Assembly (NCBI RefSeq): GCF_053078305.1
Contig: NZ_CP166879.1
Length of the DNA stretch: 64,000 nt
Strand: one strand, 5' to 3'
Shown piece by piece: positions 59,214 to 59,964 of this stretch. The position numbers were made by a program, and so were the translations under genes. The stretch's first letter is position 1, and each line of letters begins with the position of its first letter. Below the pieces are notes generated by a model. It was not told the DNA's origin. It worked only from the letters and a program-made list of their open reading frames with translations, and searched no databases.

Positions 59214-59771
59214 TTATCCTTCGACAAAAGCCATCCCTGTAAACGTTCGTCGCGGGTTGCCACGTTCAATCTGGTGATGGAACATTCGCCGCTGTGATTT
59301 TAGCGCCGCGCTATTTTCCTGTTGCTGCTGCTCCAGCCTCCAGGCAATCAGCAATCGCGCCAGCCGTTTGTTAGCATGCTGGCTGCGCTCTGACTGAACC
59401 TTCACGCTAATACCGGATGCCAGATGCGTGGCGCGTACCGCCAAGTCGGTTTTATTGACATGTTGACCGCCCGGCCCCGACGAACGCAGCGTCTCATACC
59501 GGATCGCATCGGATTGCTCCTGCTCATCAGCGGTAAAACGCCCAATGCCCAGAAACCAGTTTTTGCGCCCATGATGAGGCCGATACGGACTCGGACAAAT
59601 CCACTGAATAGTGCCACACCAGCTTTCGCTTAATGCCCATGCGTTATCGCCATCCAGAGAAACCAGCGCCGAACGCAGCGTGTCAGAGTAGCAGCCCGTT
59701 TCTGTTTCCAGCACCGTTACCGCGACGTCTTGTCGGGTAAAAACGACCAACAGAGAAGAACGCTGCGCCAA
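59214..59771 (-). CDS. prfH: Peptide chain release factor homolog PrfH (possibly 5' truncated)
   Basis: 185-aa ORF with GGQ motif ([13 protein letters not shown]); its 5' end overlaps the rtcB-like fragment in another frame. Confidence 0.75.
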
Positions 59772-59964
59772 TCGGGTAGCCGCGTCCGGGGTGTAAATCT
59801 GGCATCCCCACTACGCGCTGCATGTTGGGTAAATTTGCCGTGGTGTGTAATTGTTGGATCGCTAATCTCTCGATCCACAGGTCATTAGATGCGATGGTAA
59901 ATACCGCATCGGATAAGGGACGAATATATTTGCCCATGTACCATTCCGTAAATAGACTCGTCAT
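59683..59964 (-). pseudogene. ykfJ: RtcB-like fragment (ykfJ-type remnant)
   Basis: 93-aa ORF ...[26 protein letters not shown]... resembles an RtcB N-terminal region; far too short for intact rtcB. Confidence 0.55.

Follow-up and report, generated by a model that had tools for sequence, protein, structure and literature searches.

A K-12-type 1,027-bp deletion has left two gene remnants at the rtcB2-prfH locus, very probably an inactive relic of the operon

The interval 59214..59964 on the minus strand of the window, the 64,000-nucleotide stretch of contig NZ_CP166879.1 (assembly GCF_053078305.1) analysed here, carries the already described K-12-type deletion allele of the rtcB2-prfH operon, which is common in E. 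coli. Baranov et al. reported this deletion in 2006 for K-12 MG1655, W3110 and O157:H7 (PMC1586002), and Tian et al. noted it again in 2022 (PMC9304027). Our results indicate that the locus is very probably an inactive relic of the operon. One deletion of 1,027 bp, identical to that in the ykfJ/prfH pair of K-12, removed the catalytic part of RtcB2, the start signals of prfH and residues 1–31 of PrfH. What remains is an RtcB stub of 66 residues, whose tail of 16 codons is out of frame, next to a prfH frame that has neither a promoter nor a start and appears to be drifting.

The two remnants, rtcB2' and 'prfH, are flanked by yafP (60183..60635) and by the convergent gene pepD (57700..59157). 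According to the ORF map, the gene order lafU, dinB, yafP, the two remnants, pepD, gpt and frsA follows the familiar E. coli arrangement, and annotated regions show the same yafP and pepD flanks in strains C600, CT29 and FORC_029. The interval is the exact union of two minus-strand ORFs, 59683..59964 and 59214..59771, which overlap by 89 nt. The upstream ORF matched profile positions 1–69 of 379 of NF007153, an RtcB-family equivalog (E = 7e-30), and positions 1–58 of 356 of TIGR03073 ('release_rtcB'), the RtcB subfamily found together with prfH. The downstream ORF matched positions 31–200 of 200 of TIGR03072 ('release_prfH') with E = 3e-81. In Pfam, the RF-1 domain match scored over the gathering score and a short RtcB N-terminal match under it. 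The homologies of both ORFs, to RtcB and PrfH, are real and far beyond chance. A tblastn search of the window found no second copy of rtcB2 or prfH.

The remnants meet at a deletion junction (59737..59738, minus strand), where the intact operon has a further 1,027 bp between the two bases. The original prediction had described an RtcB-like N-terminal fragment running out of frame into prfH, and had pointed to an alignment with intact rtcB-prfH operons as the appropriate check. Both the profile matches and the alignment with the intact operon of E. coli FORC_029 (L001) agree with this description, as the alignment contains one gap, of 1,027 columns, with an out-of-frame junction. In this reference rtcB2 has 379 codons and prfH 204 codons, the two genes overlapping in ATGA; C600, a K-12 derivative, and CT29 were aligned as well. 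The deleted segment comprises nt 201–1140 of rtcB2 and nt 1–91 of prfH, which overlap by 4 nt. In the intact sequence, the left breakpoint lies between GTCGTTTTTA and TCCGGCA, and the right breakpoint between GAAGCTG and CCCGACA. The length of the deletion is 1 modulo 3 (1,027 = 3 × 342 + 1), and therefore the rtcB2 frame enters prfH out of phase and stops, as is also apparent from the translations.

The rtcB2' remnant, of the ykfJ type, spans 59738..59937 (minus strand) and retains the start codon, codons 1–66 and two bases of codon 67 of the 379-codon gene of the RNA ligase RtcB2. Its true start is the ATG at 59937, in line with both the CDS start annotated in the intact FORC_029 operon and the profile match. 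The ATG at 59964, which opens the mechanical ORF, falls within a short palindromic repeat and is not the start. With BLAST, nt 1–207 of intact rtcB2 were covered in the window, the last 7 nt being a chance continuation across the junction. From there, the translation and the ORF list show the rtcB2' frame continuing out of phase through prfH DNA (59683..59737, minus strand): Tyr-Pro is kept by chance, 16 unrelated codons follow, and a TGA at 59685..59683 ends the frame. Full-length RtcB2 (about 379 aa) is no longer encoded, residues 67–379 being gone. The lost part includes D74 and C77, which align with D95 and C98 of P. horikoshii RtcB in an alignment to solved RtcB structures, and the histidine motifs GNHF, VHSGSRG, DVAHN and AHGAGR, which all lie past RtcB2 residue 66 and hence are deleted. 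In the P. horikoshii enzyme, D95, C98, H203, H234, H329 and H404 are the established catalytic residues, serving as metal ligands and guanylylated histidine.

The 'prfH remnant spans 59214..59737 (minus strand) and corresponds to nt 92–615 of the 615-nt gene, the same part that was covered by BLAST. Codons 32–204, from 59735 onwards, are open, the GGQ motif is kept and the native TAA stop is found at 59216..59214, while the remnant has neither an ATG start nor a Shine-Dalgarno sequence. It aligns with residues 32–204 of the solved PrfH structure 7sa4 (chain 8), such that of full-length PrfH (204 aa) only residues 1–31 are absent and the GGQ is among the residues present. The coupling of the two genes is lost, as the intact GGAGGGAAAAAAGGATGA at the rtcB2 stop and prfH start falls inside the deleted 1,027 bp; the GGAGG ribosome-binding site of prfH and the overlapping ATGA stop/start were deleted with it. 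By chance, the 'prfH frame extends in frame at its 5' end through rtcB2' DNA (59738..59771, minus strand), where a TTG at 59771 opens a 185-codon ORF. Direct reading of the sequence revealed no AGGAGG-like motif before this TTG or before the TTG at 59750. A cryo-EM study of PrfH on the damaged ribosome assigned residues 2–98 and 180–204 to the rRNA-recognition domain and residues 108–161 to the GGQ domain (PMC9304027). PrfH has lost about one third of the N-terminal block of the rRNA-recognition domain, and the GGQ is still encoded.

Scans for other signals gave the following picture. An Rfam scan of 57000..62000 produced no match. One promoter-like site was found against a shuffle mean of 1.5, which is at or below expectation. 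Four terminator-like sites were found, nominally above a shuffle mean of 1.5 (sd 1.3), but all are inside the prfH remnant and none marks a gene end. A GC-rich inverted repeat (59170..59201; CTGCCGGAAGGCG-ATTAAA-CGCCATCCGGCAG), which is invariant in all strains aligned, sits between the stops of the convergent 'prfH and pepD frames. Judged from its sequence, this repeat looks like a REP-type or bidirectional-terminator hairpin; it was not called by the terminator scan because a T-run is absent.

The window shares its breakpoints with K-12. The window, C600 and seven other sequences (CT29, 88-3493, GDSC2239PM, 2273-PO3, KTa008, L011 and L013) break off at identical bases, with the same gene end coordinates by BLAST. 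Likewise, a nine-sequence alignment showed an identical gap of 1,027 columns in every deletion-bearing strain (six of the named strains). In all 11 deletion-bearing loci sampled, with the window counted among them, BLAST found prfH kept from nt 92 or 93 to 615 and rtcB2 from nt 1 to 204/207; three of these loci also have an internal 169-bp deletion in prfH. The junction was present in 2,689 and the deleted 1,027-bp segment (at least 80% of it) in 2,675 of the 5,426 complete E. coli genomes; the collection behind these frequencies is biased, K-12, O157 and ST131 genomes being numerous in it. The query for the junction was a 120-bp sequence centred on it, of which at least 80% had to be covered; where the operon is intact, the halves of the query are separated by 1,027 bp and remain unjoined. 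An evenly spaced sample contained 20 deleted and 19 intact loci (n = 39). The exact junction had no match in a GTDB collection with one genome per species, a search by exact 27-mer that would miss diverged copies; it thus gave no sign of the allele in species other than E. coli. The single 1,027-bp deletion is a common and apparently old polymorphism in E. coli.

One might argue that the deletion arose independently here, as a recurrent, hotspot-driven event, rather than by descent from the K-12 allele. Directly past the two breakpoints the sequence is similar (TCCGGCA and CCCGACA, 5 of 7 identical), which could favour slippage, and the upstream haplotype of the window is nearer to intact strains than to other deletion-bearing strains. 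However, this similarity is imperfect and offset, so that separate events are improbable to have had the same outcome, whereas the breakpoints agree to the single base among all 11 loci examined and the genomes retrieved by the junction query. Mixed flanking haplotypes, moreover, are what homologous recombination around one old allele is expected to produce. An independent origin is therefore extremely improbable. That the gap is an artefact of sequencing or assembly, with an operon that is really intact, is virtually inconceivable, given that 2,689 complete genomes, produced in many laboratories and on many sequencing platforms, have this very junction, and that the breakpoints have no repeats that would collapse an assembly. 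Since about half of the complete E. coli genomes carry this junction, it is also very unlikely that a full-length rtcB ORF would emerge on resequencing.

The pattern of variation in the remnant is in line with loss of function. Over codons 32–204, pN/pS was 0.117 in eight deletion-bearing alleles and 0.045 in eight undeleted alleles, of which one, L014, carries disabling lesions of its own, a nonsense codon and an rtcB frameshift. Amino-acid-polymorphic codons numbered 16 in the remnants versus 6 in the undeleted alleles (n = 8 versus 8); the ratios of 16:39 and 6:38 are a raw contrast from this small sample. Changes among the remnants include C71Y, P79L/R, S116P and G139W. In 2273-PO3, KTa008 and L010, a second deletion of 169 bp removed the GGQ of 'prfH and shifted the frame; by a rough figure from the evenly spaced sample, it occurs in roughly one in eight records. 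The stretches concerned are L007:1982-2391, L008:1966-2318 and L010:4515-4869. The direction of these data fits a pseudogene that would be under relaxed constraint.

Two loci without the 1,027-bp deletion showed other changes. L014 (L014:4515-6234) has a frameshifted rtcB2, with a 347-aa call, and a nonsense codon at Q170 of PrfH. In L009 (L009:4467-5345), about 0.8 kb with a YdjM-family gene is inserted between pepD and prfH, and prfH matches only over nt 1–607.

An alternative explanation of the open prfH frame might be that the truncated 'prfH is still translated, for instance with the TTG at 59771 as its start or through read-through out of rtcB2', and acts as a stand-alone GGQ peptidyl-tRNA hydrolase like ArfB. 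The 173 native codons are open with an intact GGQ, the TTG could give a product of 185 residues, and the pN/pS of the remnant (0.12) is well under 1. Yet, translation would have to do with a deleted start codon, a deleted Shine-Dalgarno sequence and a TTG preceded by no ribosome-binding motif, and the rtcB2' frame is out of phase, hence no fusion protein is made. A product would also have an rRNA-recognition domain without residues 1–31, and Baranov et al. argued that loss of a central beta-strand would stop domain 2 from folding (PMC1586002). In addition, a conserved serine beside the GGQ is changed in the window (S129L). This serine belongs to the segment NKTDSAVR just past the GGQ, and is identical in two solved PrfH proteins and in the aligned T. 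thermophilus RF2. Furthermore, other strains have deleted the GGQ itself, and knockouts of the K-12 remnants had no colicin E3 phenotype (PMC9223846). Together, these points make a translated, active 'prfH highly improbable, and leave an inactive relic as the preferred reading.

Function of the intact module is known from two studies. Colicin E3 or a CdiA rRNase cuts 16S rRNA between A1493 and G1494, upon which the ribosome stalls; PrfH recognises the damaged, stalled 70S ribosomes and releases the peptide, and after release and subunit separation the 16S rRNA is re-ligated by RtcB2 (PMC9304027; PMC9223846). Maviza et al. found that strain BW25113, with a truncated operon, is sensitive to colicin E3, that knockout of either K-12 remnant had no effect on the colicin E3 phenotype, and that the genes of the intact operon of ATCC 25922 protect against colicin E3 (PMC9223846). 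The original prediction held that the RtcB-like/PrfH pair is probably non-functional, as in K-12. The first part is supported by the absence of the catalytic residues, the prfH start and PrfH residues 1–31; the comparison with K-12 is upheld by breakpoints identical to those of C600, together with the failure of the K-12 allele to protect against colicin E3 (PMC9223846). From the sequence, we infer that neither remnant product would be functional. By analogy, PrfH/RtcB2 repair of 16S rRNA that has been cut in the decoding centre is most likely missing from the source strain. The strain should be as sensitive as K-12 to rRNases of the colicin E3 type, a suggestion made because the lesion is identical. 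For annotation, this means that 59214..59937 should be described as two pseudogene fragments (a ykfJ-type rtcB2' and 'prfH), and not as genes.

The deletion allele and the intact operon coexist at nearly 50:50 in the E. coli genomes searched. Possibly, balancing selection maintains a long-lived presence/absence polymorphism, in which the cost of RtcB2-PrfH is weighed against its benefit against colicin E3 and CdiA rRNases. Synonymous diversity is equally high in the deleted and intact classes (pS about 0.11–0.12), and the flanking haplotypes are mosaic. Alternatively, a neutral loss may have been spread by recombination, and we consider balancing selection unlikely. Most of the synonymous diversity in the remnants probably predates the deletion or came by exchange with intact alleles. 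Being so common, the deletion could provide a natural contrast in studies of what ribosome-repair immunity costs and what it gains.

Other features of the window deserve mention. The window is from an E. coli-type chromosome. Its PepD and DinB proteins have exact matches in thousands of assemblies, and the nearest locus, L018, has 99.2% identity; among complete E. coli genomes, none exceeds 97.5% identity over the 1,051-bp module or 98.3% over the last 20 kb. A large island at thrW occupies positions 1..51245, to the left of tRNA-Thr(CGU) (51246..51321), and has 99.6–99.9% identity to an island of E. coli STEC17-190. According to transferred annotation, the island contains Ag43, an integrase, a DNA methyltransferase, a TOTE conflict-system primase protein, DprA and a contact-dependent inhibition locus, cdiB/cdiA (cdiBAI); cdiA (28023..37733; 3,236 aa) is annotated as a tRNA-nuclease effector. 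At the tRNA itself, the identity to STEC17-190, a strain with an intact rtcB2-prfH, drops from about 99.9% to about 98%. This pattern indicates that the island sits in different chromosomal backgrounds. A recombination tract that imported the deletion was considered and rejected, as the 99.9% identity is confined to the island left of tRNA-Thr and the sequence to its right is ~2% divergent; the pattern is better read as one mobile island in two chromosomal backgrounds. On the other side of the remnants, a lateral-flagellar (Flag-2) remnant extends from 61758..62648 to about 64000. It includes lafU; in related strains the next gene is lfhA', an flhA-like gene truncated at its N-terminus. The region, beside dinB, is thus a further deletion scar of the K-12 kind, where some strains (L016) keep full motA/motB/fliA-like genes.

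Compared to the ykfJ/prfH pair of K-12 (b0235/b0236), the window has the same site, the same breakpoints, the same retained parts (rtcB2 nt 1–200 and prfH nt 92–615) and the same frame relation. The window and K-12 differ at about 2–4% of bases, and the window has the amino-acid changes R46C, S129L, K164R and I202V. The surroundings differ as well. K-12 (L002 and L003) carries the toxin-antitoxin pair yafN-yafO between dinB and yafP. In contrast, the pair is absent from the window, where the dinB stop overlaps the yafP start at 60632..60635, as in FORC_029 and STEC17-190. Hence, the deletion allele is found in strains with yafNO as well as in strains that lack it. In the window, a short imperfect palindrome (59956..60004, minus strand) sits at the module's 5' edge, directly before rtcB2', and the central 72 bp of the longer palindromic repeat of K-12 are missing, a gap of 72 columns in the alignment. 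The repeat that is longer by 72 bp (L002:1696-1822) is found in the K-12 lineage and in many other strains, with parts of it present in a median of 3 copies per genome. The predicted fold of the short form in the window has −17.7 kcal/mol (z = −2.1), versus −55.3 kcal/mol (z = −8.5) for the long form of K-12. The two forms look like a short and a full ERIC/IRU-like element.

Further-degraded alleles, such as those of 2273-PO3 and KTa008, share the 1,027-bp deletion and have the 169-bp deletion in addition, whereas the window lacks this second indel. Compared to the intact RtcB2-PrfH module (E. coli ATCC 25922, CFT073 and FORC_029; structure 7SA4), the retained parts of the window are 96–97% identical at the DNA level, and the GGQ domain and C-terminal part of PrfH are still encoded. 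The window differs from the intact module in the absence of RtcB2 residues 67–379, PrfH residues 1–31 and the coupled ATGA, and therefore can perform neither the release nor the ligation described for the intact module.
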